From the UHGV virus genome UHGV-0240017: a stretch of 64,000 nucleotides of DNA, one strand, 5' to 3'. This DNA is from a virus. The stretch's first letter is position 1. Each line of letters begins with the position of its first letter. Both the position numbers and the translations under genes were made by a program. Positions 21,957 through 46,431 of this stretch are shown here, one piece after another. Below the pieces are notes generated by a model that made no database searches, had not been told where the DNA came from, and saw only the letters and a program-made list of their open reading frames with translations.

Positions 21957-21988
21957 CCAATTACACGCCCCTAGAATGAGGGGCCCCC

Positions 21989-24645: not shown

Positions 24646-25944
24646 ATGAGTGACGAGACAGATAAGAACGATCCGGGGTATGACCCGAATACTGATTACG
24701 ACGATTCTCTCCACAATCCGAATAATGCGGACGCAGTGCCTTCGGTCGCAGGGTATTTCGACGGACGGATTAGTAATGCTAACCCCCCGACGCCTTACGA
24801 CGCTAATACTGAACTTACGGCATGGAACGATCGTATCCGTCTTACTGTAGGTTTGGGTCTTGCTGCGCAGCGTTTGACCAACCCCTACATGGGGTTCAAC
24901 CATATGATGGCGTCTAACCCCACGCCAATCAACCGAGAATACGGTGGACTAACTTTTATTACCCGGCCCGATTTTAACCTGTGCTACGACAACATTGCTA
25001 AGTCTCGTAAAATGTCGAACATGGCAATGCAGCCAAAGGACTCCATAGATTATTCGATTTTAGCTGCGCTTGACCCCGATTTTGAACTCGGATTTACGGA
25101 CGCACCTATGGAAAACGGTAGGCGGAAAAATCGCTTAGGTACACCGTTTATGCCTCAAGTAAAATTCGATAATCTACAAGCGTTCATACCAATACTCAGT
25201 ACGCAGCTGATTAGCCTTAGTGGTGCACCCGATCAATCGATTGATAACTGGATGGCAAGTGAAGGTTTAATGCGTGAACAGTGGGGGATGGTTGACTCTA
25301 CCCACGAAGTTAACAACAGCTTTTCCATCAGCATGTCATTAAACAACCCCTATGGCGACCCATTAATGAAAATGATGGGGGTGTGGCTGGAGTATATGTC
25401 TGGTGTGAAGATGGGTAAATTCCGTCCGAAAATGCGTAACTCCATTCAACGCAGAATCGATTATCAATCGCGAATTTACGGGATGCGTTACGATGCCTTA
25501 GGGAACATCACCCGTTTCTGGACGATTTGTGTCGCATGGCCGATGAACGATAACGCGGGACAAATGGCGAACGTTGATAACTCCAAACCGCAGTTAAACG
25601 ACGATGTTACGATTACTATTAACTGGCAAGCTATCGGTGCACGGTTTAACGATCCGCTATACATGGAAATGTTTAACCGCACCGTTTCCATTTTTAATCC
25701 AGATATGTTGCCGCAACCCGGTTCTATCCAGTCGGGCAACTTCATCCCGATTGCCAGTGACCAATTAGTCCCCATCGCGCCACAATTACTGCCGTTGTTT
25801 AACTATTACGGTTATCCGCACATCGATTCCGTACGACGCAAACTTACCTGGTATGTTTACCAGGCAGACTACCAACATATTCTCAAGAAAGCGGGATTAC
25901 TGGATAACGCTAATGCCGCTTCACTACCGACAGGTAATAACTGA
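24646..25944 (+). CDS. hypothetical protein (432 aa)
   Basis: ATG with GGAG SD; translationally coupled to next gene (TGATG). Confidence 0.7.
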   Translation: MSDETDKNDPGYDPNTDYDDSLHNPNNADAVPSVAGYFDGRISNANPPTPYDANTELTAWNDRIRLTVGLGLAAQRLTNPYMGFNHMMASNPTPINREYGGLTFITRPDFNLCYDNIAKSRKMSNMAMQPKDSIDYSILAALDPDFELGFTDAPMENGRRKNRLGTPFMPQVKFDNLQAFIPILSTQLISLSGAPDQSIDNWMASEGLMREQWGMVDSTHEVNNSFSISMSLNNPYGDPLMKMMGVWLEYMSGVKMGKFRPKMRNSIQRRIDYQSRIYGMRYDALGNITRFWTICVAWPMNDNAGQMANVDNSKPQLNDDVTITINWQAIGARFNDPLYMEMFNRTVSIFNPDMLPQPGSIQSGNFIPIASDQLVPIAPQLLPLFNYYGYPHIDSVRRKLTWYVYQADYQHILKKAGLLDNANAASLPTGNN

Positions 25945-28898
25945 TGAGTTCTACGACTTACGATACTTTGGCAAAGAACATATTGTTGTTTGCCCACCAT
26001 CCGGCAGCGATGCAAACACTGCTCTTGAATCAGCTTCTGGATGTAGAAGACGCCGAAGGCCAAATAGTGTTACGTGACCCAACAGACCCTGTTGTTTATT
26101 TGGCGGAAATGGGGACAATGTTGGGCCATGCAACGCTTATGGGGTTGCAAGAATCGGTGCCAAAGACATTTCCATCGATGGCACAAACGTACGATGACCT
26201 GTTCCGACATATGTCCGATGTGGACTACGTTGATGTGTTCGCCCAACCTTCAACCACCGAGTTGTTGTTATTAATCGATGTTGATAGCTTAATCTCCAAG
26301 GCGTACCCTTTACAAATAGCGGGCGTGCGTAAGGTTGTTATCCCACGAGACACAATTTTCACGGTGTCAGGTTACACCTTTGCCATCCAGTATCCGATTG
26401 AAATCAGGGTACTTCCTTACGGTACCAATGAAAACCCGGCGTTTCAGGTTCTTTGGATTACCGAAACACAGTCACCTATTTCTCCTGTGTCGACGAATGC
26501 GCTGGATTGGGAGTTGACGTCGTCTAACACCACGGCTTCGCAACTACTGGCAATCCATATCCCGGTCATGCAGTATGCGGTGAAAAACGAAAGTGACACC
26601 GTTGCGGGGAAAAATACCTTTGTCATGACCCGTCATTACACTAACAAATTTTTCTACGTAAGGGTGTGGATGAAATCAACCAACGATAACAAGTGGGTTG
26701 AAATTCAACATACGCACAGTCGTGACGTTTACGACCCCAACACCCCAACCGCGTTAATCCAGGTCGGTGACGGTGTTATACGGTGTACTATCCCCTCGAT
26801 CTACATGGCGAAGAATTTGGTCAGCGGCGAAATTCGTATGGATATCTACACGACCTTAGGGCCTTTAAGTGTCGATATCTCAGCTTATCCGTCTGACGAA
26901 TACACGTTTACATTGCGTGATTTAAACGGCGAATACGACGAAAACTACGTTAACCCGATTAAGAGTTTTTCCATCAAACAGATGGCTGCAAAAGCAGGTA
27001 AAATGTTATCAGGTGGTCGTAGCCAGCTCACGTTCGAAGATTTGCGTACACGTGTAGTCAATAACGCTGTAGGTGCACGAAAACTCCCTGTAACGGAGAA
27101 ACAATTAGAGGCAACGGTTTCTGACTACGGTCTAACGTTGTCGAAACCAAACGACTATGTTACTAGCCGTACATACTTCTTAACGGCACCGATGCTCGAA
27201 TCGACAATTCCCAATGTCAGTTCTCCCATCGGGACGATCACGGCACCGTTCTATTTCTCCTGGAATGAATTGGTTAATCTACCGACGGTAAAGGTTAACG
27301 GTAATCGCCTGACGATTCTTCCTGACACACTTTATCGGTTCACCGACACCAGCCTGACGGTTGATGCGGAGATGACGGTCTTGGCAAAAACCATGCGTAA
27401 AGAAGATTTGATTAATGCGGCCAACGCTAATCGTTATCTCTTTACACCATTCCATTACGTTGTGGATATCAACAATAAAGCCATTGACGTTCGTATTTAT
27501 CAATTAGATAAACCGACGTTAAACTCCAAACGCTTTATCGCCACTAACGTAAGCACGGAACTCAGTGTGGTAACAGCCGACTACACTATCGAAAAGACCG
27601 AAGCCGGTTATGTATTGCGCACCGTAACGAAGTCAGAGGCACCTTATCAAGCACTGACCGACGACCAAGTTTTTGCACAGCTATCGTTCCGTCCACGTAA
27701 CGCAGACAACACTTTAGCGTACATCAACGGTACGTTAGTCGGTAAACAGGGTAGTGAACGCGTATGGGAATTCCTGTTGGAAACCAACCTGGACGTCGAC
27801 CGTAATGACGAATTGGTGCTAACGAACACACGCATTAGTAGTAGCACAGCCACGGAAACGCCTGTACCGCTGACAACGGACTTCAACCTGTTCTACGGCT
27901 GCACCGGTTATTATCCTGGTAATTACGAACGTGCGGAAATGGATGCGTTAATCACTGCCCCGTCACGCGATGCTATTGGTATTACTCACGAGATTTTCAA
28001 AATCGAATTGGGTAAAGCAATGACGTACTACTGGCGTAAAGCGCGTGCTGTTACTGACAGCATTAACTACCAGTATTACGAAAAAGACGTGATGGCAACG
28101 TGGGAAATCGATGTGGTTAAACGCGATGAGAACGGTGTACCAATCTACACCTACGACGCAGGTCGCACGCCGCCACTACAGATTACGTACGAGCATCGTA
28201 AAGGTGATCCTAAACTCGACGAGGCTGGAGAACAGATCGTCCTACATCGTGAAGGAGACTTAGTTAAAGACGAGTTCGGCAATCCGAAAATTGCGAAATC
28301 GCGTTCTATCAAATTCCGTAGTGAGATGGCGGTATTCGATGCGCGATATAAATTCGCGACGACACCTTCTGCAAAATCGTATCTGAATGAAGTTATCGAA
28401 AACATCGTTAACTACGTCACGGTAATACTCCCGACTTTGAAGCCTATGTTGTTAGAACGCACCGAAGGTTACTTTGTGCCGATTACAACAATGGGGTATA
28501 TCGACGCTCGTACAGAGGACGGGGTAGTAACACCTGTCCCTGCGGAAAACCAGTTCACAGTACGCTATTACCTAACGGCTGCTAACCGTAATAACACCGA
28601 GCTCTTAACGCAGATTCGTAAGAAAACTTCTCAGGTTATCAACGATTACTTGGGTAGCCATCTAACAATCTCTGCAACAGAAATCGGTAATGCGTTGAGT
28701 GAAACCCTCGATGCGTCTATTATCGGTGTTGAACTCGATGCTATGGGACCAGATAAAGACATGCGTCTCTTTACCGTTGTCTCAGAAGCATCAAGAGCAA
28801 CTATAGGTAAAAAGCTGGACATTGAGGCCAGCGGCGACATCGGGCTTAAAGACGATATCGTTATTGTTTATAATCGCCACGATACTACCGCCGATTAA
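25944..28898 (+). CDS. large hypothetical protein (984 aa), possibly a virion structural protein
   Basis: Long ORF, start overlaps upstream stop; strong terminator downstream. Confidence 0.7.
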   Translation: MSSTTYDTLAKNILLFAHHPAAMQTLLLNQLLDVEDAEGQIVLRDPTDPVVYLAEMGTMLGHATLMGLQESVPKTFPSMAQTYDDLFRHMSDVDYVDVFAQPSTTELLLLIDVDSLISKAYPLQIAGVRKVVIPRDTIFTVSGYTFAIQYPIEIRVLPYGTNENPAFQVLWITETQSPISPVSTNALDWELTSSNTTASQLLAIHIPVMQYAVKNESDTVAGKNTFVMTRHYTNKFFYVRVWMKSTNDNKWVEIQHTHSRDVYDPNTPTALIQVGDGVIRCTIPSIYMAKNLVSGEIRMDIYTTLGPLSVDISAYPSDEYTFTLRDLNGEYDENYVNPIKSFSIKQMAAKAGKMLSGGRSQLTFEDLRTRVVNNAVGARKLPVTEKQLEATVSDYGLTLSKPNDYVTSRTYFLTAPMLESTIPNVSSPIGTITAPFYFSWNELVNLPTVKVNGNRLTILPDTLYRFTDTSLTVDAEMTVLAKTMRKEDLINAANANRYLFTPFHYVVDINNKAIDVRIYQLDKPTLNSKRFIATNVSTELSVVTADYTIEKTEAGYVLRTVTKSEAPYQALTDDQVFAQLSFRPRNADNTLAYINGTLVGKQGSERVWEFLLETNLDVDRNDELVLTNTRISSSTATETPVPLTTDFNLFYGCTGYYPGNYERAEMDALITAPSRDAIGITHEIFKIELGKAMTYYWRKARAVTDSINYQYYEKDVMATWEIDVVKRDENGVPIYTYDAGRTPPLQITYEHRKGDPKLDEAGEQIVLHREGDLVKDEFGNPKIAKSRSIKFRSEMAVFDARYKFATTPSAKSYLNEVIENIVNYVTVILPTLKPMLLERTEGYFVPITTMGYIDARTEDGVVTPVPAENQFTVRYYLTAANRNNTELLTQIRKKTSQVINDYLGSHLTISATEIGNALSETLDASIIGVELDAMGPDKDMRLFTVVSEASRATIGKKLDIEASGDIGLKDDIVIVYNRHDTTAD

Positions 28899-28916
28899 GA
28901 AAAAAAATAATAAAAG

Positions 28917-28946
28917 TTACCCTACTCCTCCGGGAGTAGGGTAATC
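28917..28946. terminator. bidirectional terminator GTTACCCTACTCC-TCCG-GGAGTAGGGTAAT (copy 1)
   Basis: At a convergent gene junction with A-run before and T-run after; near-identical copy at 34276. Confidence 0.8.
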
Positions 28947-28950: not shown

Positions 28951-30621
28951 TTAATCAATCAATTTATTGAACTTCCCACCTTTCACAAGTGGGTTGGACT
29001 TGGCACGCTTCAACACCGTTGCCATAGACCCTGCGGCCTTGCACCACATGTTAATCATGTTTGCACTGTGCGCAACAGAATCCCAGACATTACGGTCAGG
29101 GTTTAACACCATCATCGTGGTCAGCTCACGACCGTGAAGGTTAAAGTTCTCCCCTCGCGTCACTTGGTCTTTAAACGCCTGTTCCATCGCCTGCCATTTC
29201 TGACTGTCGACGCCAGAACGTGACTGACGCGCCATCTCTTTCAGCGTTTTTACAACCTGATCGACACGTTTTTCCAACACCTTATACTTGTCTAGCGCAG
29301 TATTCGCTACACCATCCGAGATACCACTACGTGCCAGTGTAATCAGACATGCCAACAGCTCACGGTAATCCCCGTTACTTAAACTCAACTCCTGGCGCAT
29401 CATCTCCAGGTTTGTTGTGGAGCCAAAGAAAGAGTTAGCGCCGATTGATGCAATCATCCAACCGTTGTCTAATTCACGTGTGGTATAACCGAGAAGCTCA
29501 ACCTTGTCTTTCACACGCAAAATTGGGCCCGGGCTACCTTTCTGTCGACCGAACTCCGTAGCAGAATATTCAATTCGACCGTTGATCTCACCTAACGCAC
29601 GGACCAGATGCACCGCAGCAACTTGGTTCTCTTGCGACGTCCCTACCTTCGGGTTATTTGACAGGTAGTAAGTTTTGATGTCTTTCAGCGACTGGTCTAA
29701 GTCCTGAAGCGCACCGCCAAAACTGTCAAGAATCGTGCTCATTAAGTTGAACTGAATATCTGACGGAATGTTCACCCCAGCACGTTTCACATCAGGCGGC
29801 AAACCGTTATAGACTTCCTCAGCAACCCCGAAGTCAAATACACCGTAACCGATGTTCGTCCGTAGCAGCGTATCTAGCAGATCCTGAATAACCTGCAGCT
29901 CATTCTGACGACGTTTAAGGTGGTTCTTAAACGTATCGATAAACGGCGATTTCCCTAACGCGGCGGCGAGTTTATTTAGAAACTCTTCAGCTTCCATGTT
30001 CACAAAAACATCGTCAGCCAGCGAAAGAGATAACTCCAGGTTGCTTAACTCGCTGTCTTTCAAACCTTTTGACAGTACCAGATAAACTTCTTTCAGTACG
30101 GTTGTTTTCAGGCGCTCTGTGAAAGGAACATCGGCCAACTTCTCTTCCAGTTTCTCGCGATAGTCGTTCCCGTCAATATTCGCAGCACCTGCAAAAGGAA
30201 CGGCGTTGCTGATAATCCAACTGAGGATTTTCATTATCCCCATCATCACCATCACGATAAGGCTAATCTTACCAAAATTGGCGTAAGACTCTAATGCCAC
30301 CACCGTTTCTTTCTGGTGTGTTTTGGAATAATTCGACGTCAGAACACTTTGTACCGCCTTCGGGATTGTGCCAGGACGCAACGATTCAGTCGCTACAGCA
30401 ACATCACGGTTCAACCCTGCATTACGTATTTCCCGTAAGATCGCTTCAATTTGCGCGATAAGGCGAGAACCGTAAATCAGGTCTGCTTCATTACGTTGCA
30501 TGTAGAGATTGAGTTGGCTAACAGAATCGATGCGTTCTTCCATGCGCTGTTCTAACAGTGCAGGAAGTTCATCGAGTTTCCATTGCGGTTGCGCAATGTT
30601 TGCTGTCATCTCCATACTCAT
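28951..30621 (-). CDS. hypothetical protein (about 556 aa) with internal hydrophobic segment
   Basis: Track ORF 28951..30684 starts with GTG; ATG at 30621 overlaps upstream stop (ATGA). Confidence 0.6.
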   Translation of the reverse strand: MSMEMTANIAQPQWKLDELPALLEQRMEERIDSVSQLNLYMQRNEADLIYGSRLIAQIEAILREIRNAGLNRDVAVATESLRPGTIPKAVQSVLTSNYSKTHQKETVVALESYANFGKISLIVMVMMGIMKILSWIISNAVPFAGAANIDGNDYREKLEEKLADVPFTERLKTTVLKEVYLVLSKGLKDSELSNLELSLSLADDVFVNMEAEEFLNKLAAALGKSPFIDTFKNHLKRRQNELQVIQDLLDTLLRTNIGYGVFDFGVAEEVYNGLPPDVKRAGVNIPSDIQFNLMSTILDSFGGALQDLDQSLKDIKTYYLSNNPKVGTSQENQVAAVHLVRALGEINGRIEYSATEFGRQKGSPGPILRVKDKVELLGYTTRELDNGWMIASIGANSFFGSTTNLEMMRQELSLSNGDYRELLACLITLARSGISDGVANTALDKYKVLEKRVDQVVKTLKEMARQSRSGVDSQKWQAMEQAFKDQVTRGENFNLHGRELTTMMVLNPDRNVWDSVAHSANMINMWCKAAGSMATVLKRAKSNPLVKGGKFNKLID

Positions 30622-31061
30622 ACCAGCTCGCCTCGCGTTTCTTCCATATAGAATTTCACCGTTTCCATGAAACGTTCCAGCCACAGATTAACGGTATCCC
30701 ATACATCGTCGCCCAAGGCTTCATTGAAAATCTCACGGACAGAGAAATTCTCAATAGCACGACGACCGCCCCAAGCGCTATCGTAGCGGTTACAAAACAG
30801 CGCCACTGTCAAATCTTCAATAGTGCCCAGATCGACACAATAAAGCTCGTTTACGTCCGAAACAACATTTTTCATCAGCGGGCGAAGCTTTAGCTGCGAC
30901 ACTTCATTCGACCCAAACGGGCCATTATCGGGCATGTCGGTATTATAAGCCAATGCGAATGCGACCAGGCCAGTCAGTGCGCGTTGTGCCTGTACACCTT
31001 TACCCTCGTTCGTACGTTTAAAGTCCAGAACCAGGGAATTTAAAGAAACTTTATGCGTCAT
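30618..31061 (-). CDS. hypothetical protein (147 aa)
   Basis: ATG start, coupled to downstream gene. Confidence 0.65.
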   Translation of the reverse strand: MTHKVSLNSLVLDFKRTNEGKGVQAQRALTGLVAFALAYNTDMPDNGPFGSNEVSQLKLRPLMKNVVSDVNELYCVDLGTIEDLTVALFCNRYDSAWGGRRAIENFSVREIFNEALGDDVWDTVNLWLERFMETVKFYMEETRGELV

Positions 31062-31075: not shown

Positions 31076-32410
31076 TTATTCGACATTAAACATGGCTGAA
31101 GCAATACGAAGATCGTTCGACATATACTTCCCAATCGCACGCTGGTAATCAACGGCAGCACGTGAGCGACGACCCTTCGGCGTTAAAGTATTCCAGATAA
31201 ACTGATACAAGTTATCTTTATCTTTTACGGTTTCTAATAACTTGTCGATAACCGCAATACCATCTAAAATACGTTTACGTTGCTCGTTAGCCGCTTTCGT
31301 ATTTTTGTCTTTAATCGTATTGAGTTCTTCAACGAGTGTACGTCGCATTGCCTCAAAACGCTGCTGCGGCGGATCGTAAATGGTGTTATCCGGGTCATTT
31401 AAGATCATTCCGAACGTCACGGAAATCACTGGAATAATTGGAATCGTAGAAGAGACTATTAACGCGGTCACGCGGAAAAGTTCTACTGTCAAATGGACAC
31501 CCATGTTCATATACGCTGAGTTCCGCAGCAAATAGAACGAACTGGTTTCCATTTTATACAGCGCAGAGGCCAGATAAGGAGCGCCTCCGAAACGGGAAGC
31601 AAAATCATCCGCAGCACGTTCCCACGTTCTGTTAGCAAAGCCTTGACTGCCGCTAATGAACGGGCGATCTAATAACAACTGCGTGACTAAGTGCATGTAG
31701 ACGTTTTCTTTTTTGTACTCGGTACAAATCGTTTCTGGCTGATTCACTTTCGTGTTCAGCATCTTCTCTACGTCTTTAACAATGCGCAAGCGGACAGTCT
31801 GGTCTTCTGTTTCCATGATGCGGTTAGCCGCAGCATCTGCCAGCAAATCAGTCACCACGGTACGCATTAGCGTACGGAAATAATAATAGATGTGGCCGAC
31901 TTCGTGAAGAATCACCGAGGCGATTTCCAGATCGGTCAGATTTAATTTTTCCAGCAGCACCGGGGTAAGATAAAGCGGAGAACCCACTTTGCTTAGATCG
32001 CCACTGATTTTTGCGCTGCTATCATCGATTGATGTGTTCAGTTCGTTTTCTTTGATGAACTTACTGTACATATCCAGGTCTTTGTTACCTGCGTACAGTG
32101 CGCGAGTCATCGATGCAATGATTGGACTGTTTGCATCCAATTTCGGTGGTTCTACGCCTGCAAAAGCAACGTCAACAAGACCCAATTCGCTACCGTTCTT
32201 AAAGTGAATCGTAATGCCGATATTCTTAAATACCCAATCCGAAACCCCGGCACTTTCGTAGCCTGCAGGACTGAAATCACCTGCCCCACGAAACTTAGCA
32301 ATAACATCAGCCAATTCTGCCAGCTTCTTTTTGTCTTGGAATTTAATCGATTCTGCGGCTACAACCTTTGCATCCGCAACTGATGCAATGTGATTTTGCC
32401 AATATCCCAT
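31076..32410 (-). CDS. hypothetical protein with HExxH motif (possible zinc metallopeptidase)
   Basis: SVILHEVGHIYYY; track start 32443 is GTG; in-frame ATG at 32410 has AAGGA SD. Confidence 0.55.
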   Translation of the reverse strand: MGYWQNHIASVADAKVVAAESIKFQDKKKLAELADVIAKFRGAGDFSPAGYESAGVSDWVFKNIGITIHFKNGSELGLVDVAFAGVEPPKLDANSPIIASMTRALYAGNKDLDMYSKFIKENELNTSIDDSSAKISGDLSKVGSPLYLTPVLLEKLNLTDLEIASVILHEVGHIYYYFRTLMRTVVTDLLADAAANRIMETEDQTVRLRIVKDVEKMLNTKVNQPETICTEYKKENVYMHLVTQLLLDRPFISGSQGFANRTWERAADDFASRFGGAPYLASALYKMETSSFYLLRNSAYMNMGVHLTVELFRVTALIVSSTIPIIPVISVTFGMILNDPDNTIYDPPQQRFEAMRRTLVEELNTIKDKNTKAANEQRKRILDGIAVIDKLLETVKDKDNLYQFIWNTLTPKGRRSRAAVDYQRAIGKYMSNDLRIASAMFNVE

Positions 32411-32481
32411 TTGTGTTTCCTTTTGAGAAATTACATTACCCACAAATCAGTATAGCAGCCGCTAGATTTGAGAGTGAAATC

Positions 32482-34263
32482 ATGAATAACTATTACGCAC
32501 CGGAAGACGTTATTGCCAAGGAGTGCAAGTTTGTTTCTTACGCAACCGATCAGCAGAAAGAAAACGACTTCGTGCTCATAAAGGAGGTCGTCCATACTAA
32601 AGATGGCAGATATATCCCACGAATTGTCATGCGTGAAAATCTGAAACGGCCCATCTACATTACTTTACCACAACATCGTAACCACAAGGAAAAGAAAGAA
32701 TACGAAGAACGTAGTAAGTGCCAGGAATATTTAACAACGGATGTAATGATGTCCTCAACCATACAGATGGGTCTGGGGATTCGTTTTCCCGATAAAAAGA
32801 AACCACTCCGCCAGGTTTGTACTTCACCGTATGTTTACTGGGCCGATTTGCCCATTACTAGCTGGATTAAAGAAAAGTACATACGTAAATGGCCTAATGC
32901 TGTTTCACCTAACCGCATCTGTGTATACGACGTGGAAACTCGAGAAGAAGACAAATCTCGAGACCCCTGGATTATGAGCTTTGTTTTAGACGACGAAATT
33001 CATTTCTTTGCTACGAAAGACTACGTCACCCGTTGCGGACGTGAAAACTTTGAAGCGCGACTCGTCAAACGTGCTCAAGAATTGCTTTCTAAAATCGCTT
33101 TTCGTGGAAAAGACGAGAACGACAATCCTATCGTTAAATACAAAAACGTTATCGATGGTTACAAAATCTTCGTTTACGAATGCCTCAATTCAGGTTGTTG
33201 TATTCAACGGATGTTTGAGGAAATCCATCCTCGGCTTCCTGACTTACTCGTCGCATGGAACCACGAGTTCGATATTTCACGTATGTTGGAGGCTTTAGAA
33301 GCTGCGGGGATTCCACCGGAAGACGTCTTCTGTCATCCTGACGTGCCAAAACAGTACCGTCGTGTCTACTTCAAGAAAGACGAAGCATCGAAGAAAACGG
33401 AATCAAAATCATTAACAAAAGCGCCTTCGCAACAGTGGCACATTCTTTATTGTACGGCGTCATTCTACTGTGTAGATGCAATGTGTCTATTCCGTTCATT
33501 GCGTGTACACGAGGGACAACGCCCCTCTTACAAACTTAACGCGATACTGGAAACCGAGTTGGGTTTAAACAAGTTGGACTTACCGGAACTGCCCTACGAG
33601 GAAAAGTTGGAATGGCACTTAAAGGCGCAGAAAGATTTCCCGTTAGAATACTGCGTTTATAACATCTTCGATAACTTGATGATTGTTCTGCTGGATAAAA
33701 AGACGAACGATCTGTCTTCTGCTATTTCAGTTTTGGCGGGGTATTCGATGTATGATATTTTCCCTTCTCTACCGAAGCGAATCTGTATTGCATACACGTA
33801 TTACCTCTATGAACAGGGCCTGGTTATCGGTTGTGTGGGTAGCGCGATGCGTAACGATTTCGACAATGAAGTCATTGGGACGGATGGTTGGATTGTTACG
33901 TTGACTGCGTGTATGAACGCAGAGAATGGGTTACGAAACATCATCAAGGAAGTTGATGATTTCTACACGGCTTTCCGTGGGCAAACAGCGGATGCTGACT
34001 TAACCCAGGCATACCCATCTGCAACGAACATGATGAACCAGTCTCGTGAAACAACGTTAATCGAGCTACTGAGCATTCACGGTGTTCCTGAAGAAGTACG
34101 ACGTCGTGTCGGTATTAACCTTACTGCGGGGCGTGTCAATGCAATGGAAATCGCAACTGATTTCTTCCTATTGCCCGATAAAAACGACGTCTTAGAAGCT
34201 TTTCTACGTAGACAAGGAGAAACGATTACCGATCCTTTTGAATACATCAAAGCTGCAAAGTAA
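32482..34263 (+). CDS. DEDD 3'-5' exonuclease-domain protein, probably the N-terminal/exonuclease part of a split family-B DNA polymerase
   Basis: CVYDVETRE (Exo I D-x-E), AWNHEFDISRM (Exo II), YCVYNIFDN (Exo III-like); no palm motifs in this ORF; start set at ATG 32482. Confidence 0.55.
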   Translation: MNNYYAPEDVIAKECKFVSYATDQQKENDFVLIKEVVHTKDGRYIPRIVMRENLKRPIYITLPQHRNHKEKKEYEERSKCQEYLTTDVMMSSTIQMGLGIRFPDKKKPLRQVCTSPYVYWADLPITSWIKEKYIRKWPNAVSPNRICVYDVETREEDKSRDPWIMSFVLDDEIHFFATKDYVTRCGRENFEARLVKRAQELLSKIAFRGKDENDNPIVKYKNVIDGYKIFVYECLNSGCCIQRMFEEIHPRLPDLLVAWNHEFDISRMLEALEAAGIPPEDVFCHPDVPKQYRRVYFKKDEASKKTESKSLTKAPSQQWHILYCTASFYCVDAMCLFRSLRVHEGQRPSYKLNAILETELGLNKLDLPELPYEEKLEWHLKAQKDFPLEYCVYNIFDNLMIVLLDKKTNDLSSAISVLAGYSMYDIFPSLPKRICIAYTYYLYEQGLVIGCVGSAMRNDFDNEVIGTDGWIVTLTACMNAENGLRNIIKEVDDFYTAFRGQTADADLTQAYPSATNMMNQSRETTLIELLSIHGVPEEVRRRVGINLTAGRVNAMEIATDFFLLPDKNDVLEAFLRRQGETITDPFEYIKAAK

Positions 34264-34275: not shown

Positions 34276-34305
34276 GTTACCCTACTCCTTCGGGAGTAGG
34301 GTAAT
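34276..34305. terminator. bidirectional terminator GTTACCCTACTCC-TTCG-GGAGTAGGGTAAT (copy 2)
   Basis: Same stem as 28917..28946 with one loop change; convergent junction. Confidence 0.8.
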
Positions 34306-34309: not shown

Positions 34310-34819
34310 TTATGCCGCGTTGAAGCAGTAAGCCAGTAAGTGTTGCAGTTCTGGATCAGTCACACGTTGTACCAAACGTCCAACGTTGTCACGCTGAGCA
34401 AAGTTTGCTTTATCCTGAGAATTTGCGAAACGTACTAACATATTGATAAACACGACGTATGTTTCACGTTCAGCGGAATCGTAAAACCAATCCAAATGGT
34501 AGTTCACATTCGGATAGTAGAAGATACCACGTTTGTGTTTAATTGCAGCTTCAACGAACACGTTGAACGCATCAATGAATGCTTGGCCACGTAGTTCAAA
34601 TAACGTACGGAACGATTGATGCAGCTTACGGAAAGCGTCGTCAGCTTCTGGGGTATCTTTCGGTTTATTTTGGCTAATTGCTCCGCCAGCCTCATCGAGC
34701 TGAGTAGCAATAAGTCGCACCTGGTACGCATCATCCTGACTGTAAGTTACCGCATTTTCCTCAGCGCGTCTTACGGCTGATGGGCGTTCATCTTGTGTCG
34801 AAATATCTTTAGTTGCCAT
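34310..34819 (-). CDS. hypothetical protein (169 aa)
   Basis: ATG start; terminator immediately downstream. Confidence 0.7.
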   Translation of the reverse strand: MATKDISTQDERPSAVRRAEENAVTYSQDDAYQVRLIATQLDEAGGAISQNKPKDTPEADDAFRKLHQSFRTLFELRGQAFIDAFNVFVEAAIKHKRGIFYYPNVNYHLDWFYDSAERETYVVFINMLVRFANSQDKANFAQRDNVGRLVQRVTDPELQHLLAYCFNAA

Positions 34820-34832: not shown

Positions 34833-36134
34833 TTACGTAATGTGGATCGATGGATTAAATTCGTGTACCACAGTCTCTTTACCGTGCATCGCGGCCATTG
34901 CCACGGACATAACGTTAGAGAACGCCGAGGATATATCCGCAGCGATTGCGCGAGGTTCTTCCCCTTTATTCGCAGACGAACACGCTGTGCAGGTGTCGAT
35001 GTGGCCATACTGACATAAGATGGGTCGGCGTAACCGCACCACTTTACCTAACTGCTGTTTTAAATATTCCTCAGTCAGTGGTGTCAGCTTACCATTAACC
35101 ATCGCATTCATCCCAACGTAACGTTTTACGTTATCTTCGGTAATCACAACTGGATACGTTAGTTTCGTTCCACAGTCACCAGGGACGATTCGGTGGTTCT
35201 GGAAAATCATCTGGATAATACGTACCTGCTCACCCCCTTTCGCTGTTTCCGCACCACGAGAGAACGAACCTTCACGAATAGAGTTGAATTTCGCGACCAG
35301 GTTTTCCATCCCCGCTTTATCAACTTCAACTAATGCGTTCGGAATGAGCGTATAATGACCCCCTTCCTGAAAAGACGATTCAATACCGTACATCAGCATT
35401 AATTTACGTCGACGCATCCGCGATTTCGGCGAGTTATAAAACTCAATAGATTGGTCACCCGACAACCACTCTTTATCTAACTCATCCAGCGCTTTTTCAA
35501 TCTTAACGATAACGGCAGGATCGTCTAACTCGTCTTTGTGCTTCAACAGTAACGCGTCGCGGATTTTATACGCATCAGGATGCACAGTGAGGCTACGCAA
35601 CGTACCGGTTGGTGCAATACCTGACGTGAGCGGTGCGAGCTCGTGTAAGCCGCTTACAAAGCGCTCAATCATACTCGGTCGAATTGCACCCTCGTTTTCT
35701 GGCTCATCAGTTTCATGGTCTAAACAACGACGATGCATCTCTTTGCGATATTCCAACGGGTTTTGTGAAATCGCCAGATAAGGTAAGCGTGTACCGAATG
35801 CATACCAGATAACAATCCAGTTAAAAACGTAACGGCCTACTGTTGTGGGAATAGGACCGTCTAAACCGGGATAATCGTCAGGGCGTAGCTCGAACTGTTC
35901 TTCGGGGATAAACAGCTCCTGGTCCTTTACGCCGTCAGTAATCGGTTCCCAACTGCCCTTACCGTCTTCTACAGCGTAATAATGCGGTAAGCCGTCGATA
36001 TACGTTATATCAAACGCTTCGGGTTCTTCGCGCCCTGTTGGAAACACCGACATGTTAAAAATAGCAATACGCCAAACCAGACGTCGCCACGCTTCTGCTT
36101 TACATGCCGCTACTAAGAACTCAAACCTCGTCAT
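34833..36134 (-). CDS. hypothetical protein (about 433 aa) with C-terminal Cys/His cluster
   Basis: Track start 36152 is TTG; ATG at 36134 follows GAGGAGG; CQYGHIDTCTAC near C terminus. Confidence 0.6.
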   Translation of the reverse strand: MTRFEFLVAACKAEAWRRLVWRIAIFNMSVFPTGREEPEAFDITYIDGLPHYYAVEDGKGSWEPITDGVKDQELFIPEEQFELRPDDYPGLDGPIPTTVGRYVFNWIVIWYAFGTRLPYLAISQNPLEYRKEMHRRCLDHETDEPENEGAIRPSMIERFVSGLHELAPLTSGIAPTGTLRSLTVHPDAYKIRDALLLKHKDELDDPAVIVKIEKALDELDKEWLSGDQSIEFYNSPKSRMRRRKLMLMYGIESSFQEGGHYTLIPNALVEVDKAGMENLVAKFNSIREGSFSRGAETAKGGEQVRIIQMIFQNHRIVPGDCGTKLTYPVVITEDNVKRYVGMNAMVNGKLTPLTEEYLKQQLGKVVRLRRPILCQYGHIDTCTACSSANKGEEPRAIAADISSAFSNVMSVAMAAMHGKETVVHEFNPSIHIT

Positions 36135-36975
36135 CGTGTTCTGCCTCCTCAACCTGATAAATCAGCCGTAGGCTTTTTAATGCAGGTTGTAAAACAGTAA
36201 TGGGTTGTAACCCATCATTATTAAGTTTCTCTAAGTTCGTCGAAAGATCGGCATAGGCGTCATCGAAATCATCGTTATCGATAATCGAAAGTCCTACCGT
36301 ATACATCTCGAGTAATTCTGTTTCGCTGTAATCTTCGACGTCAAACACCAACGATTGTTGGACAACCGTCAAATCAGGATCTTCAGGTAAGTTTAAGAAT
36401 ACGAACGCAGAGGGGTTTTGCGGATAAAGGCGCAAGTATTCTGCAATACGCGCCAGACGCGCATCGTTACCTACTGCGAGTTGTTCATCCACAACCATAG
36501 CTGAGAGATAGTTACGCATCACCGTCATTACACGGGGTGAAACACGAATGACCAAATCTTCAAAATGGATATTGTCGTCGCCGTATACGTAACGACAAAT
36601 ACTTTCCAGGATAAACTCTGGCGTCTCTCCAGACATCACGAGACCGTATAGCGTATCTGTGTCTTCGAACTCTTCGAATTTAGACGTAATACCATCCAGA
36701 ATACGCACGGTCTCTTTCGGTTTACGGAAAACTTCTTGTGGGTTTAAAGCAACGCCTAAACGGTTGCCTAACGCCACGGCGCATTTTACAATAATCCCTT
36801 CCAGTCTTACAGTTTCGTCAGCAGGATCGGACGACGGTTGCCAATACACATCGCTTAACGCAACATCGTAACCGTAATCCATACACAGCGTTACTAAGTC
36901 CAGGAAAGGCGCAGCACGTTCTTCCGCACGATTGACGGTAAGAACGGCGGCGTAATCGGTATAAATGTCAATCAT
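36121..36975 (-). CDS. hypothetical protein (about 284 aa)
   Basis: Track start 36987 is TTG; first in-frame ATG at 36975. Confidence 0.6.
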   Translation of the reverse strand: MIDIYTDYAAVLTVNRAEERAAPFLDLVTLCMDYGYDVALSDVYWQPSSDPADETVRLEGIIVKCAVALGNRLGVALNPQEVFRKPKETVRILDGITSKFEEFEDTDTLYGLVMSGETPEFILESICRYVYGDDNIHFEDLVIRVSPRVMTVMRNYLSAMVVDEQLAVGNDARLARIAEYLRLYPQNPSAFVFLNLPEDPDLTVVQQSLVFDVEDYSETELLEMYTVGLSIIDNDDFDDAYADLSTNLEKLNNDGLQPITVLQPALKSLRLIYQVEEAEHDDEV

Positions 36976-40458: not shown

Positions 40459-42052
40459 CAGCTTTCCTTACAATATACGGTGAGGTGGCTATCTTAAACG
40501 ACAACACAGAATCACTCAGTGATTTTTGACGCGCATTCAAATAATTACAATGCTTCGGTATCGAATAAGAATGGAATAACCACACAACGGGATCGAGTTC
40601 ACCCCAGTCGTTGTGGAGAATCTTACGAGGGCGTCCGGCCATCTGGCGGTTTAACTGCTGGTCTTCCACAGGGGTAGTGATGTACATGTGTACCAACCCC
40701 GGTTTGTCGACCGCAGTACCTGCTTTCCCTGGTGTTGAAATAGAGAAATCCGCTTGAATAAAGTCGTCATACGAATCCCCTGCGTTATATTTCGCAACCA
40801 TCAAAGCGTGGAACTTATCAGATTGTGCGAGCTTCTCTCGCACGTAATCCGTAAAGAACTCACACATTGCGACGGTTGCAAACAACACCAACACTTTCTG
40901 ACCAGGTTGATAACCTGCCAGATACGTCCGTTCTATTACATCCCAGACCATATCCGCGTACGACTGATGAAGGTTTTCGCTAATCAGCTTCCCTTCAAAC
41001 AGTTTGTGGTTATACGGGGTCATCTTCGTTGCCCACCACGCAAACCGTTTATTCTCAATTCGGTAATACAACGCTTTCACGTGCACCGCAGGAATAATCG
41101 GAATGGTGATACGTGCCTCTTGTGGGAAACGTTCTTTATACCGTTCTGCCAAGAACGCTTTCGATTCACCCGGTTGGAGTGTGGCTGACATCTCAACAGA
41201 GGGCGGCGGATTCAACATAATTCCAGCCATGTACACCAAGTGGAAATGTTCGTGCACTTCATCCATCGATAAAAACCCAACACCTAGCGTGTTATAGAAA
41301 TCATCGATGTTCACTGGGTTAGTCGCAGCGGTATTGATATATTCTTTCAAAAACCGCTGTAACGTCACTGTAGAGACAATAATAACTTTGATGCCACGTT
41401 TATCCAACTCACCACTTTCACCCATTTCTAGCGCTTCGTAGACCGCTTGTACGCCCTGTATAACCAAGACGTCCTCTTTCGATTCACGAAGTCCAGTAGG
41501 ATCTTCCGTTAAGTCGAATAACCATTTAGAGATGTACGTGGGTCGATGAATCAATAACGTTCTTACCCCTTTACGAACCATCACTTTCATGTTCGTCTTC
41601 GACTTACCCATCCCTGTACCAATCTCAAAGATGGTTTGTAAGCGGTTAGGCTGGCACGCTGTTTCTACAACGCCATTCTGATAAAAGAAGCGTGACGACT
41701 CATCTTCTTCTATCATGTTAAAGCCGTAGTTTTCAAACGTACAGCGGTAAGGTGTTCCCTGGGTTAAGTGATGCTCGTAGAGTTTAAAGTCAATTGCAAA
41801 CTCAGCGGCAGTTCGGTTAATAATGATTCGTAAACGTTCGGAAAAATTCCGGTGGAATATAAAGGTACGGATAGAAGGTATATGCGCGTAATACGGATCG
41901 CCACGTTCGGTGATGATTCTTCCGTATTGTTTACCCATTTTCGGGGCGTGCATATTCTCTTCTGCCCACTTTAGGATCGCCGACTCTATAGGTCGACAAG
42001 GGACTTCGACCCTCACGCCCATACTCGTAAAGGTCATGTGGAATTCGTACAT
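40343..42052 (-). CDS. superfamily 2 DExH-box helicase
   Basis: Motif I GTGMGKS, motif II DEVH, motif III SAT, motif VI QMAGRPR in canonical order; ATG with GAGGGG SD. Confidence 0.75.
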   Translation of the reverse strand: MYEFHMTFTSMGVRVEVPCRPIESAILKWAEENMHAPKMGKQYGRIITERGDPYYAHIPSIRTFIFHRNFSERLRIIINRTAAEFAIDFKLYEHHLTQGTPYRCTFENYGFNMIEEDESSRFFYQNGVVETACQPNRLQTIFEIGTGMGKSKTNMKVMVRKGVRTLLIHRPTYISKWLFDLTEDPTGLRESKEDVLVIQGVQAVYEALEMGESGELDKRGIKVIIVSTVTLQRFLKEYINTAATNPVNIDDFYNTLGVGFLSMDEVHEHFHLVYMAGIMLNPPPSVEMSATLQPGESKAFLAERYKERFPQEARITIPIIPAVHVKALYYRIENKRFAWWATKMTPYNHKLFEGKLISENLHQSYADMVWDVIERTYLAGYQPGQKVLVLFATVAMCEFFTDYVREKLAQSDKFHALMVAKYNAGDSYDDFIQADFSISTPGKAGTAVDKPGLVHMYITTPVEDQQLNRQMAGRPRKILHNDWGELDPVVWLFHSYSIPKHCNYLNARQKSLSDSVLSFKIATSPYIVRKADVTTAAANRANRAVCRSELSKFSRKSFKGVSRRFRRRK

Positions 42053-42094
42053 GCTCCCCTCTTACAAAAAAAGAGGGGCGCAGGCCCCTCTCGT

Positions 42095-44194
42095 TTACTC
42101 AATGATAGTCGCGGCCACCGTATTGTCGTATAACGACGCCGGACGTTTACGCGACGTGTAGAAACGCACGTTGTCCAGGTTTTTCTGTTGGCCTTCGAAT
42201 AACAACATCGGTACCGCTGAACGCATCGCAATCAACGTATTGTGATCCTCGAAACGTTTGCCATCCATCGCATCAGCATCTTCACTATCAAACCCAACCG
42301 CCGGGAAAGGATTGGTCGGTGATTCAACGCGTGATATCGCCAGCATAATCGCGATGTGTGTCATCGGAATACCACCGAGCTTACGTTGGATATATTTAAA
42401 CACATCAAATAACGCGTGCGTACATTGTTTCTCCGTAGCACCACGCATCTGAACCAGAGTCGTTGGTTTTACCTTACCTGACTTCTTGCTCAAACGCATT
42501 GAGTCATCAGAGAACTGTTCGAAAGTATCCGATTTATCAGACGCAACCGAACGAAGTTTCAATTCTAACCCTGCTACAAACTCCGCCATAGATTCAGACC
42601 GATTCGTATAAATTAGTATCGGCCAACTCGGTTTCCATCCTTTCAGGGGAATCCGTACCAGCTTCTTCGACGGGAAGGTAATGTTATCGCGCTGTTTCAG
42701 GAAGAAATGCAAGAAGGCTTTCGAGAAGTTACCACAAACCCCCATACGGACGTCAATGGGATCTTCAGCCAACACATTCCCAGCTTCATCCAACCGCAAA
42801 AAGGTCAGTTCGTTAATCTCCGGCAATGCCGTTTCGTCAATCACTTCCAAATCGTCGTGATACGCGATTTGGCTGATTTCAGAATAGACTTCATCAGAAA
42901 TAACGAGTTGGTATTCATCCCAATTACCGTACTGTGGTTTCTCCCGTAAACTCAACCCTTTTACGGAGTTGTGTTTATACTCCCCAAGATAATCCCGCAT
43001 TCTTGGGGTCAGCACCAGATTCAGCAGATAGCGTAAGAAGTCCAGGTGTTTCGTTGAGAGAATCCCCTGCGTACCCTTTTCAGATATCGAGGTTGAAGCC
43101 AAGTGACCTGGGGACGTTCCCGGCGAAAGGTTATAAATCAAATCACCCATGCACGTTGCACAAATGCTTTGACGTGCCATCCCCTTACAACACATCGCAC
43201 TACGAAACTCAATAGGTTTGCCTAAGACTTTCTCAAACTCCCCTTTCTCGAAACGTAGCCACGGACCCCCCACACCTTCAAAACGATAACGCATTCCCAC
43301 CATCGCATCGTACTTCTTACGCTCCAGTTTACTTTCTGTAAACGTGTGACGGTGAACATGATGCGTACCACAATCGTCGTATTCGAAATACATTAACACG
43401 TTAGCTGCTAACTGTAGCTTACGTGACGCATATTCCGCATCGGCGATTTTATCGGTGTTATACAGGTGAGAACGTGACGTTGCACCTGCTTCTTTCAGAC
43501 GGCTAATTACAGAATGTAGGCCCGTGAAGAAACCTTCCCATACCTGGTTAGAATAAACACGAGAATCAATCTCTGATGTTTTCCCGCGTATATACGCCTG
43601 AAGAACCTGGTTCATTTTGATGGTCTTATCCAAGACCGACATCACCACAGGGTTTAAACGAAGTTGTGGGTCTTTGAAGATATCTTCGATAAGAAGATAC
43701 GCTTCCTCAACCATATCCCGACCTTCTTCGTCGTATCCAGTAGGATACATTTGTGCCCACTGATGAATCTGCGTAAAATTTCGGTGTTGGTAAATTTCCA
43801 TCATCGTATCGTAGTCAATCGTGACGCAATACGACAACAGATTTTTCACCGATAAGTTAAACGCATCCGCATAGACGTGCTGCTGCAATAAATAGCGGGT
43901 ATCTGCTAAATCCACACCCGCTTTACGTGCTGCCACAGCTGCCAATGACATAAACTTCAGATGTGCGTCATCTGTAGCAGTGTCGCCATGTTTATACGCC
44001 ATTTGCGAACTGATTGGGATCTGCGGATAAAATCGTGTTAGCCCCCAATAAGGCCAACTGATTTTAATGTGGCGTCCTGACATGTTTAAGGTTATTCCGT
44101 CATCGAACGTCACTTCATATCTGCCGCGCAATAGCCACACCTGATCCGAGTTCAGTTTACACAGATCACGCACGTGAACTGGAGTGCCCTTCAT
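42095..44194 (-). CDS. putative RNA polymerase subunit (beta-prime-like fragment, speculative), coupled to the beta-like gene
   Basis: Start overlaps stop of the beta gene (rpoB-rpoC-like order); internal CCKGMARQSICATCMG resembles the beta-prime zinc finger, otherwise divergent. Confidence 0.4.
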   Translation of the reverse strand: MKGTPVHVRDLCKLNSDQVWLLRGRYEVTFDDGITLNMSGRHIKISWPYWGLTRFYPQIPISSQMAYKHGDTATDDAHLKFMSLAAVAARKAGVDLADTRYLLQQHVYADAFNLSVKNLLSYCVTIDYDTMMEIYQHRNFTQIHQWAQMYPTGYDEEGRDMVEEAYLLIEDIFKDPQLRLNPVVMSVLDKTIKMNQVLQAYIRGKTSEIDSRVYSNQVWEGFFTGLHSVISRLKEAGATSRSHLYNTDKIADAEYASRKLQLAANVLMYFEYDDCGTHHVHRHTFTESKLERKKYDAMVGMRYRFEGVGGPWLRFEKGEFEKVLGKPIEFRSAMCCKGMARQSICATCMGDLIYNLSPGTSPGHLASTSISEKGTQGILSTKHLDFLRYLLNLVLTPRMRDYLGEYKHNSVKGLSLREKPQYGNWDEYQLVISDEVYSEISQIAYHDDLEVIDETALPEINELTFLRLDEAGNVLAEDPIDVRMGVCGNFSKAFLHFFLKQRDNITFPSKKLVRIPLKGWKPSWPILIYTNRSESMAEFVAGLELKLRSVASDKSDTFEQFSDDSMRLSKKSGKVKPTTLVQMRGATEKQCTHALFDVFKYIQRKLGGIPMTHIAIMLAISRVESPTNPFPAVGFDSEDADAMDGKRFEDHNTLIAMRSAVPMLLFEGQQKNLDNVRFYTSRKRPASLYDNTVAATIIE

Positions 44195-46431
44195 TATTCA
44201 TCGCCCCTTTTCATTTTCACCAATTCAAACCCTTCACAGCTGTGGATGTTTTTCATCATCCTGTCAATCTGCGAATCCCCTAACGGGAATTTATTCCGGT
44301 CTACCAGTGGACCTGGATTAGACGGGGTTTGAGATCGATAAAGCCCTACTAAAATCTCACGATGCACCGCAGGGTTATTTGCCCTGTCGTGAACTTCTTC
44401 GTAGTTACCTGGACCATAACCCGCTAACAGTCGTTCTTCCGAAGGACCAGCCCATTTTAGCGTTTTATAGTTTATCGGATACGAACCACGTCCTTGGTTA
44501 GACGCGTCTATCGTACCCAGATAATTCAGATACATTGACGAGATACTGGAAAACTCACGACCTGTTTTATCCAGACGTAATGTCTCCACACCACCTACGT
44601 AAAACTCATTTTTTGTCCATTCCTGTTTACCATCGAAATTAGTAATCAGGAGTTTGGATTTACGCGGTTTAAATTCACCCAACCGTTCACTAATATCGAC
44701 TGGTGTGTCGTCAAGTTCATGTGGTAAGTAAATACGGATTGTAAAATCGTAAATCTCTTTGAAAAGTTCGCGTTGTAAATCCTCCGTAGGATGTGTTACC
44801 TGTAGTGTGTTGGCCCATTCAGGATTAAAGCGTGACAGATAATCCATCAGAATTTCCCAACACTCACTGATACGACCTTCGTCCAGCATCGGTTTAAGAC
44901 GCATCTTCAACTGCTCAGACGCAGCTGACCAATACATGTGGAATAATGCTGCATAAGTCGAGCGACGAATTACAGCGTTCATCGAACGTAAAACGTGAAC
45001 ACGTTCACCGAATTCGTTAATCGGCATCTGTTCAACGGGTAATACACGACCAACAATCCCTTTCGTGCCCGAGCGGTCGGTAATCTTAGACGACACCGTT
45101 ACCGGGATCGGATAACGAACAGCAATACGAATGGTATACGTGTTGATGGGATCGCTGAGTCCGCGTTGTACTGGCGAGGTCAACTTAGAAAGAATCTGCT
45201 GACTGACATTTTCTTTACCGTATTCACCACGACGAATTGCTTCATCAATCACCACGCGTATCTCTTCACGAAACTCGTGATAGACCTCGTACGTTTCAGA
45301 AGCGAACGCTTTTTCCAACAACACACACGCTTTCGGCGACCAGATAATATTTTTGTCACGGGACATCGAGAAATAGAATCGTACGATGGCATTGTAATAG
45401 TCTTTCAATGCTAACGCGTATTTATCCAGCTCTCGTTTGTTCTCTTCGGTACAAGAAATATTGTTAGCACCATTCGCACAAGACGTTTCATCACGCCACA
45501 CCTGGATATCGACGATACGTGTACCGCTACGTTCCATCAGTTCTTTGTCACCTGCAAGACGTGCTTTATAGTGAACGGGATCGGCATCCACATATTCGCA
45601 GCTATCGAAGAACGGAGAGACGTGTTGGGTTTCCCCAAGCGACGCATCAATTGCACCGTAAAGCTCATCGAAACGACGCGATGCAATGACCAACCCATCG
45701 TCACGAATAGCCTCTCCTACATCCGGGAAATACCGTGGGACGCGATTACCGTTCGGATCGATATAACCGTAAGTATCCAGTAAAAACTCGTCTTCACGTA
45801 GCGTCTTTTCAACGATTTTCAAACCATAACCGTGGAGTTTTTGGGCGGCGTACTCAGAGATGGTGTAGGAATCCTCGATGATATCAGGATGCGAAATCGT
45901 AACGGTTGGTAGCACGACGCTATCGGCGTACTCGCCTTCCACCATACACGACATCGTTGTAAGGATTTCATCCTTTTCCAACTGATCGGTTTCGCCACGT
46001 AAAATACTACGCAGTTTCATCGACTCACGTTTCTCAGATGAGAAGATGTTGTCGTGGTTAGTATAGAAATTAATCTCCAGCACATCTATCATGGTTTTAC
46101 CGCCCTTCATTTCTGCACGGCGGAAGAAGATAGCATGTTCCAACGCTTTAGAATCCCCACGACGTCCATAACGTGTAAACGTCGCGCGGCGCTGACGACC
46201 GTCTTTGGTCATATAGTGGCAGATGCTACCGGGATCTTCTACAACGTCATTGAACAGAAAATCGTGGTAGTTTATATCAGCCCCTGTAAAATGTGGCGAT
46301 GGTTCAGGATTGTCGATAGGGACCGCAGACTTCATATGGTTGCCTACCATCGATGCCCTTGCACCTGATACTTCGGTGATATTAATCTCACGGTCAGCCA
46401 CACTGCTCATTAGCTCTACTGGCGTTTTCAT
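44194..46431 (-). CDS. RNA polymerase beta subunit homologue, C-terminal half
   Basis: DRSGTKGIVGRVLPVEQMP...VHVL..NAVIRR matches GDKMAGRHGNKGV...PVEDMP...VDIVLNP.GVPSR; GTRIVDIQVWRDE matches GTVIDVQVFTRD; LNYLGTIDASNQGRGSY matches LNHLVDDKMHARSTGSY. Confidence 0.7.
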   Translation of the reverse strand: MKTPVELMSSVADREINITEVSGARASMVGNHMKSAVPIDNPEPSPHFTGADINYHDFLFNDVVEDPGSICHYMTKDGRQRRATFTRYGRRGDSKALEHAIFFRRAEMKGGKTMIDVLEINFYTNHDNIFSSEKRESMKLRSILRGETDQLEKDEILTTMSCMVEGEYADSVVLPTVTISHPDIIEDSYTISEYAAQKLHGYGLKIVEKTLREDEFLLDTYGYIDPNGNRVPRYFPDVGEAIRDDGLVIASRRFDELYGAIDASLGETQHVSPFFDSCEYVDADPVHYKARLAGDKELMERSGTRIVDIQVWRDETSCANGANNISCTEENKRELDKYALALKDYYNAIVRFYFSMSRDKNIIWSPKACVLLEKAFASETYEVYHEFREEIRVVIDEAIRRGEYGKENVSQQILSKLTSPVQRGLSDPINTYTIRIAVRYPIPVTVSSKITDRSGTKGIVGRVLPVEQMPINEFGERVHVLRSMNAVIRRSTYAALFHMYWSAASEQLKMRLKPMLDEGRISECWEILMDYLSRFNPEWANTLQVTHPTEDLQRELFKEIYDFTIRIYLPHELDDTPVDISERLGEFKPRKSKLLITNFDGKQEWTKNEFYVGGVETLRLDKTGREFSSISSMYLNYLGTIDASNQGRGSYPINYKTLKWAGPSEERLLAGYGPGNYEEVHDRANNPAVHREILVGLYRSQTPSNPGPLVDRNKFPLGDSQIDRMMKNIHSCEGFELVKMKRGDE

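Follow-up and report, generated by a model that had tools for sequence, protein, structure and literature searches.

A predicted N-terminal subunit of a split family-B DNA polymerase in an uncultivated phage related to SPN3US

The 64,000-nucleotide stretch of virus genome UHGV-0240017 analyzed here (hereafter, the window) belongs to an uncultivated phage related to SPN3US, and carries on its plus strand, at 32482..34263, an open reading frame (ORF) whose product of 593 amino acids (aa) is very probably DNAP-N, the N-terminal subunit of the heterodimeric family-B replicative DNA polymerase (PolB) of a nucleus-forming PhiKZ/SPN3US-like jumbo phage. Its partner, DNAP-C, is encoded at 61519..63831 on the minus strand. 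The basis computed in this work comprises gene structure, motif conservation, orthology to gene products (gp) 82 and 50 of phage PhiKZ, likeness of fold to RB69 gp43, gene co-occurrence, and the position of the split. The following features were located in the DNAP-N gene:

32482..34263, plus strand: DNAP-N gene, with a predicted N-terminal domain, 3'-5' exonuclease, first palm fragment with motif A, and first palm-insertion segment; orthologue of PhiKZ gp82
32929..32940, plus strand: Exo I motif DVET, aa 150-153 (D150, E152), aligned with PhiKZ D151/E153 and RB69 'FDIEV'
33259..33273, plus strand: Exo II motif NHEFD, aa 260-264 (N260, D264), aligned with PhiKZ D251 and RB69 'WNVESFDIPY'
33658..33672, plus strand: Exo III motif YNIFD, aa 393-397 (Y393, D397), of DEDDy type, aligned with PhiKZ D452 and RB69 'YNIIDV'
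33991..34020, plus strand: polymerase motif A DADLTQAYPS, aa 504-513, aligned with PhiKZ gp82 'ADLDIVSTYPN' (D562) and RB69 'SFDLTSLYPS'
33997-33999, plus strand: codon of D506, the predicted catalytic aspartate of motif A, aligned with PhiKZ gp82 D562
34078..34260, plus strand: C-terminal helical segment, aa 533-593, corresponding to about 589-638 of PhiKZ gp82 (boundaries approximate, from the pairwise alignment and the domain limits in PMC13648687)

The ORF runs from an ATG at 32482 to a stop codon ending at 34263, and its homologues were aligned starting at residue 1. An identical 593-aa protein was called by gene callers on public metagenome contigs of ~224 kilobases (kb), to which the exact match was confined, and the nearest named protein was 95% identical. 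A longer form, starting at TTG 32368, would overlap the divergent gene 31076..32443(-).

A first-pass annotation of this locus had described three DEDD proofreading motifs (DVET, NHEFD, and Y-x3-D), all of which were indeed located. In an alignment of 30 DNAP-N family sequences with identities of 24-95% (A1), residues D150, E152, Y393, and D397 were invariant, and N260 and D264 were conserved in at least 90%. Moreover, of 20000 shuffles of the DNAP-N protein, 17 produced the ordered Exo I-II-III pattern; and among the 35 stretches of the window that run for at least 300 aa without a stop, DNAP-N alone contained it. This rarity among shuffles, together with uniqueness in the window and conservation in the family, places the exonuclease motifs beyond chance.

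The same annotation had found no recognizable palm motif in the protein, and had regarded it as an exonuclease domain encoded by a separate gene. Both statements have to be revised, since motif A is present, with D504, D506, Y511, and P512 invariant in A1, and the protein further has a PolB N-terminal domain and a palm-insertion tail. The ordered exonuclease pattern combined with motif A was recovered in none of 20000 shuffles (0/20000). By comparison with PhiKZ, aa 533-593 would represent, approximately, the first of three segments of a palm-insertion domain shared with DNAP-C. Furthermore, DNAP-N matched phrog_3011 ('DNA polymerase'; E 1.4e-250, covering 3-583). A Pfam scan of the protein returned nothing meaningful and no polymerase domain; and motif B, motif C, and a thumb were not found in it by motif search, in the A1 alignment, or in the AlphaFold2 (AF2) model.

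Against RB69 gp43, the A1 profile gave collinear matches at Exo I-II, at Exo III, and at motif A (three blocks; E 3.5e-8), the last of them falling at residues 405-431 ('SFDLTSLYPS'), and hhalign paired DNAP-N aa 141-526 with RB69 gp43 105-431 at a probability of 97.4. When DNAP-N was modeled alone with AF2, aa 1-453 were confident and aa 454-553, the motif-A/palm piece, had a predicted local distance difference test (pLDDT) score below 50; this low confidence would fit a segment that folds only against a partner chain. In Foldseek searches of the PDB, RB69 gp43 was the top match to the AF2 models of both DNAP-N (E 1e-13, ~480 columns) and DNAP-C (E 4e-5; single-chain model with pLDDT 83). Taken together, these profile, hhalign, and fold matches make DNAP-N the equivalent of a family-B polymerase's N-terminal half, extending as far as motif A, rather than an isolated exonuclease domain.

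The partner gene, located 27 kb away on the other strand and carrying a DTDS motif, is as the first-pass annotation had described it. Its features, with conservation taken from an alignment of 30 DNAP-C family sequences (A2), were:

61519..63831, minus strand: DNAP-C gene, 770 aa, GTG start, with predicted palm-insertion segments, fingers, remaining palm, and thumb; orthologue of PhiKZ gp50
63337..63363, minus strand: motif B (fingers) KTLNNGMSG; K157, N160, N161, S164, and G165 invariant in A2
62554..62565, minus strand: motif C DTDS, aa 423-426 (D423, D425); S422-D-T-D-S-T427 invariant in A2
62323..62331, minus strand: K-x-Y motif K501-H-Y503, invariant in A2; counterpart of RB69 KKRY 705-708, aligned with RB69 706-765
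61522..61644, minus strand: acidic C-terminal tail, aa 730-770, ...DDEEDEDEEEVFDDE / ...SERAGDDEEDEDEEEVFDDE, from the tail comparison across A2

DNAP-C is spanned end to end by Pfam PF20286 (divDNApol, divergent family-B DNA polymerase; E 2.7e-279), matches phrog_2927, and weakly matches PF00136 at the fingers (PF00136 positions 98-190). In the A2 profile, its motif B region was aligned with the fingers of Pol zeta (residues 1020-1099), and D425 is predicted from the alignment to be the equivalent of PhiKZ gp50 D426, the second catalytic aspartate. The protein begins with palm-insertion helices, followed by the fingers, and a motif search of DNAP-C found neither motif A nor exonuclease motifs.

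When both proteins are read in sequence, the family-B motif order ExoI-ExoII-ExoIII-A-B-C-KxY is complete. The canonical one-polypeptide layout does not apply: motif A lies on 32482..34263, motifs B and C lie on 61519..63831, and the split cuts through the palm, between motif A and the fingers that carry motif B. The outcomes that the first-pass annotation had named as refuting were not observed, since each gene encodes only part of a polymerase, and PF20286 plainly marks 61519..63831 as a polymerase gene. The earlier proposal of a replicative polymerase in two polypeptides is correct as regards the two-gene split; the division into an exonuclease chain and a polymerase chain is not, since DNAP-N supplies D506 and part of the palm insertion.

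Both proteins have full-length, collinear orthologues in PhiKZ. BLASTP paired DNAP-N aa 14-575 with gp82 at 34-35% identity (E 6e-55 and 1e-39), and DNAP-C aa 5-729 with gp50 at 35% identity (E 4e-147). The five catalytic residues published for gp82 (D151/E153/D251/D452/D562) are all kept in DNAP-N, as D150/E152/D264/D397/D506. The sole large gap in the alignment is the PhiKZ 'little finger' insertion (gp82 350-415, ~65 aa), missing from DNAP-N at aa ~357-366 (window 33550-33580), which agrees with the report that this insertion is found in some Pseudomonas phages only (Basu et al., bioRxiv, October 2026; PMC13648687). The 'split subunit DNA polymerase' of PhiKZ was identified in 2012, according to Thomas et al. 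(2016; PMC5105663), who credit Cornelissen et al.; and the divergent PolB clade was described by Iyer et al. (2021; PMC7824862), who noted a separately encoded 3'-5' exonuclease. More recently, the gp82-gp50 1:1 complex was purified and its structure determined by cryo-electron microscopy (cryo-EM) at 2.1 A, denoting an obligate 1:1 polymerase/exonuclease with an active site built from both chains, which are 'extensively interdigitated' (PMC13648687). In that enzyme, the split sits within a large palm insertion, and DNAP-C contributes the remaining palm with motif C D426, the fingers, and the thumb; D562A in gp82 led to loss of polymerase activity and D151A/E153A to loss of exonuclease activity, and synthesis is strongly stimulated by the transient binding of Rhc (gp155), which combines an RNase H with a clamp-like domain (PMC13648687). 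The window genes agree with this picture in each feature compared, the missing little finger included.

The two genes also travel together, in about 300 sequenced jumbo phages. By tblastn, homologues of DNAP-N were detected in 300 phage records and those of DNAP-C in 300, with equal counts, among the top genera listed, for Pseudomonas, Erwinia, Vibrio, Serratia, Aeromonas, Klebsiella, Ralstonia, and Escherichia, and differing counts for Salmonella (25 for DNAP-N vs 24 for DNAP-C) and Staphylococcus (8 vs 5). All listed matches covering most of either query were jumbo phages of the PhiKZ/SPN3US kind, and the isolates nearest by DNAP-N were Erwinia phage Asesino (80%) and Salmonella phage SPN3US (75%). 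In every relative with both positions listed, the two genes were 27-37 kb apart, for example:

SPFM21: 102291-104057(+) and 131648-133822(-), with spacing and orientation as in the window
Machina: 44194-45918 and 13998-16250
PhiKZ: 40578-42773 and 77960-79876

A DNAP-N profile search of 1.84 billion representatives matched 2025 proteins, the best 150 of which measured 489-894 aa, with the profile stopping a few residues before their C-termini; no protein fusing the N and C halves was found among these 150. The 894-aa member (P0188) owes its length to a ~330-aa acidic low-complexity C-terminal extension, and not to a fusion. Two other relatives, P0227 and P0303, presented N-terminal extensions of ~130 aa.

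In this reading, DNAP-N comprises the N-terminal domain, a proofreading 3'-5' exonuclease of DEDDy type, the opening palm strand/helix, where motif A (D506) lies, and a helical tail, and DNAP-C comprises the fingers (motif B), the remaining palm (motif C, D425), and the thumb. By analogy with PhiKZ, the DNAP-N tail and two DNAP-C segments are predicted to co-fold into a palm-insertion domain that would lock the chains into a stable 1:1 enzyme. Because the split runs through the palm, the polymerase active site would be composite, each chain contributing one aspartate, proofreading would reside wholly in DNAP-N, and a third protein, Rhc, would boost synthesis.

Three other explanations were weighed against this heterodimer. 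One, close to the wording of Iyer et al. (2021) and to the stand-alone proofreading exonuclease that the first-pass annotation had offered as an option, is that DNAP-N is a DnaQ (epsilon)-like exonuclease loosely joined to a self-sufficient polymerase at 61519..63831. The exonuclease motifs are the most obvious feature of DNAP-N, and Pfam shows no polymerase domain in it; however, we regard this explanation as very unlikely, considering that the protein reaches 593 aa with a PolB N-terminal domain, that its invariant motif A aligns with RB69 D411 and PhiKZ D562, and that DNAP-C lacks a motif A of its own, besides the loss of polymerization caused by D562A in the N-subunit of PhiKZ and the interdigitation of its chains (PMC13648687). 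In an even less probable scenario, DNAP-N would be a complete or independent polymerase, or an unrelated nuclease with coincidental motifs, and the DTDS gene would be unrelated to it; the Pfam, profile, hhalign, and fold results already refute this. Short motifs can certainly arise by chance, but the shuffle frequencies reported above speak against it, as do the co-occurrence of the partner gene and the failure to find motif B, motif C, or a thumb in DNAP-N, whose profile and fold matches to RB69 gp43 are confined to the N-terminal half of the latter.

Split or intein-interrupted PolB genes are present in other phages and archaea (e.g., MIJ3 and cases cited in PMC5434244), so that a split intein could join the halves by protein trans-splicing into one canonical PolB chain. 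We consider the chance of this negligible: no intein/Hint or homing-endonuclease Pfam match was obtained in either protein (E up to 1), and the C-terminus of DNAP-N and the N-terminus of DNAP-C align end to end with gp82 and gp50, which are separate chains in cryo-EM. Some results weigh against the heterodimeric polymerase itself. The key structural source for PhiKZ (PMC13648687) is a preprint, and interaction and activity have been shown for PhiKZ only, from which we infer the physical complex, the enzymatic activities, and the dependence on Rhc in the window phage. PhiKZ Rhc gp155 had no tblastn match in the 64-kb window, and a third subunit is therefore extrapolated from related genomes, such as that of the SPN3US-like phage SPFM11, in which a homologue spans the full length of Rhc (98% coverage, E 8e-29); the Rhc gene presumably lies outside the window. 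Additionally, phmmer searches of DNAP-N and DNAP-C against PDB sequences returned noise only, the cryo-EM chains of PhiKZ thus being missing from the sequences searched, and hhalign of the DNAP-C profile with RB69 gp43 recovered the K-x-Y block alone (probability 22). The sequence likeness of DNAP-C to canonical PolBs is weak, its assignment resting mainly on PF20286, the motifs, the fold search, and orthology to gp50.

When compared with the PhiKZ enzyme, the window polymerase shares the two-gene architecture, the predicted split point after motif A inside the palm insertion, and the separation of the genes by tens of kb, and in both genomes DNAP-C lies near a gene for a gp55-like non-virion RNA polymerase beta subunit. 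In contrast, the two PhiKZ genes are on the same strand and those of the window on opposite strands, and the PhiKZ enzyme has been assayed whereas that of the window is known from genes alone. The likeness is closer with the clade of SPN3US, Erwinia phage Asesino, phiEaH2, and CR5, whose orthologues show 75-80% protein identity and the same local gene order, with DNAP-N as a lone plus-strand gene amid minus-strand genes and DNAP-C ~27-28 kb away in opposite orientation; the SPN3US orthologue YP_009153338.1 is annotated 'DNA polymerase'. These are sequenced isolates, whereas the window phage is not.

RB69/T4 gp43, the best structural match to both halves, has the same motif order and a DEDDy exonuclease. 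Unlike the 593 + 770 aa of the window, it is a single 903-aa polypeptide; it lacks the palm-insertion domain, works with the ring clamp gp45 and a clamp loader instead of Rhc, and, for RB69 gp43, identity in the structural alignments is only ~15%. In T4-like Aeromonas phages, gp43A/B is another split PolB. Further examples are the PolB of Methanothermobacter thermautotrophicus, the DNAP of group-B magrovirus, and that of cyanophage P-SSP7 (cited in PMC5434244). Split PolBs of this kind likewise have a catalytic domain spread over two genes and an enzyme reconstituted from two polypeptides, but they are independent events at other positions, with adjacent or nearly adjacent genes versus 27 kb here, and without the shared palm-insertion domain. 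DnaQ, or Pol III epsilon, is also a 3'-5' exonuclease of the DEDD superfamily encoded apart from the main polymerase chain; however, it is a small single-domain DEDDh protein that places nothing in the polymerase site, whereas DNAP-N is DEDDy, with a PolB N-terminal domain and motif A.

The strongly acidic tail of DNAP-C, of ~40 aa and with an aromatic residue in its ending ...EEEVFDDE, deserves comment. Among the homologues sampled, highly acidic tails were found mainly in the SPN3US/Asesino-like clade; PhiKZ gp50 lacks one, its alignment stopping at ...SDFY, and many other relatives stop at or shortly after ...SDYY. The tail may serve to tether proteins to one another or to mimic DNA. In PhiKZ, the C-terminus of DNAP-C adjoins that of Rhc. 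The acidic tails of T7 gp4 and gp2.5 dock on T7 polymerase. We entertain, as an unlikely proposal, that the SPN3US-like clade has a modified three-subunit enzyme in which the tail, specific to the clade, would bind the basic face with which Rhc contacts DNA, as an extra tether or by mimicking DNA, or would dock a helicase or a single-stranded DNA-binding protein; and, separately, that the subunit genes may belong to different transcription units 27 kb apart, with a stoichiometry that could be regulated and with free DNAP-N able to act as an exonuclease. A 63-aa ORF at 61374-61565(-), without Pfam match, overlaps the final 47 nucleotides of DNAP-C in another frame and may be spurious.

Regarding the neighborhood, the DNAP-N gene is followed by a hairpin, which we list with its near-identical copy:

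34276..34305, no strand assigned: bidirectional intrinsic-terminator hairpin between the convergent DNAP-N (+) and 34310..34819(-); 13-bp stem, TTCG loop, A-run 5' and T-run 3'
28916-28945: near-identical hairpin between the convergent 25944..28898(+) and 28951..30684(-); A-run before, T-run after

The consensus of the two is GTTACCCTACTCC-T(C/T)CG-GGAGTAGGGTAAT, and the pair resembles one bidirectional intrinsic terminator used twice. The sequence 'TTACCCAC', which lies upstream of both polymerase genes, was rejected as a promoter, most of it being accounted for by the terminator-hairpin motif together with a coincidence in coding sequence. The motif RTTACCCWMC occurred 6 times versus 0.68 expected. 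On the other side of DNAP-N, the product of the divergent gene 31076-32443(-) is annotated in SPN3US as a virion structural protein, and presented a zinc-metallopeptidase-like HEVGH motif and a sub-threshold match to Peptidase_M48 (E 0.0057).

Fragments of RNA polymerase beta subunits are encoded at 34833..36152(-) and 56585..58084(-) (phrog_2962 and phrog_2987), the latter being the homologue of PhiKZ gp55. They belong to the split multisubunit enzymes typical of these phages and are a second essential enzyme encoded in pieces in the window; their vicinity agrees with the PhiKZ-like identity of DNAP-N. Between the gp55-like gene and DNAP-C, in the position of chimallin gp54 in PhiKZ, 58169-60016(-) encodes 615 aa matching phrog_8316 (unknown function); BLAST detected no similarity of the product to gp54, Pfam returned no match, and its identity to the nearest isolate homologues was only 53%, versus 75-80% for the polymerase halves. 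Searches of the window by tblastn with PhiKZ gp49 (the small SH3-like neighbor noted by Iyer et al., 2021; PMC7824862), gp51, and chimallin gp54 gave no matches. Long stop-free plus-strand ORFs of 395-752 aa were also observed at 58076-60025(+), 4218-6476(+), 19283-20593(+), and 20787-21974(+), antisense to and nearly coextensive with the minus-strand partners 58169-60016, 4158-6452, 19310-20602, and 20658-21929, respectively. In the pair 58076-60025(+)/58169-60016(-), the PHROG family match falls on the minus-strand ORF. These plus-strand ORFs are probably mirror ORFs produced by codon bias, and a potential source of error in gene calling.

In brief, a two-gene family-B polymerase is carried by all PhiKZ-like nucleus-forming jumbo phages and was already known as a feature of them, and the biological questions raised are those already under study for PhiKZ and Goslar. 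The value of our data lies mainly in annotation, as many GenBank records call DNAP-N a 'hypothetical protein', and one an RNA polymerase subunit, and the N-terminal subunit is without any Pfam model. The refinement is that the split lies inside the palm and not at the boundary between exonuclease and polymerase, so that neither product would polymerize alone, which bears on efforts to express, engineer, or inhibit the replicase of those nucleus-forming jumbo phages that serve in phage therapy.

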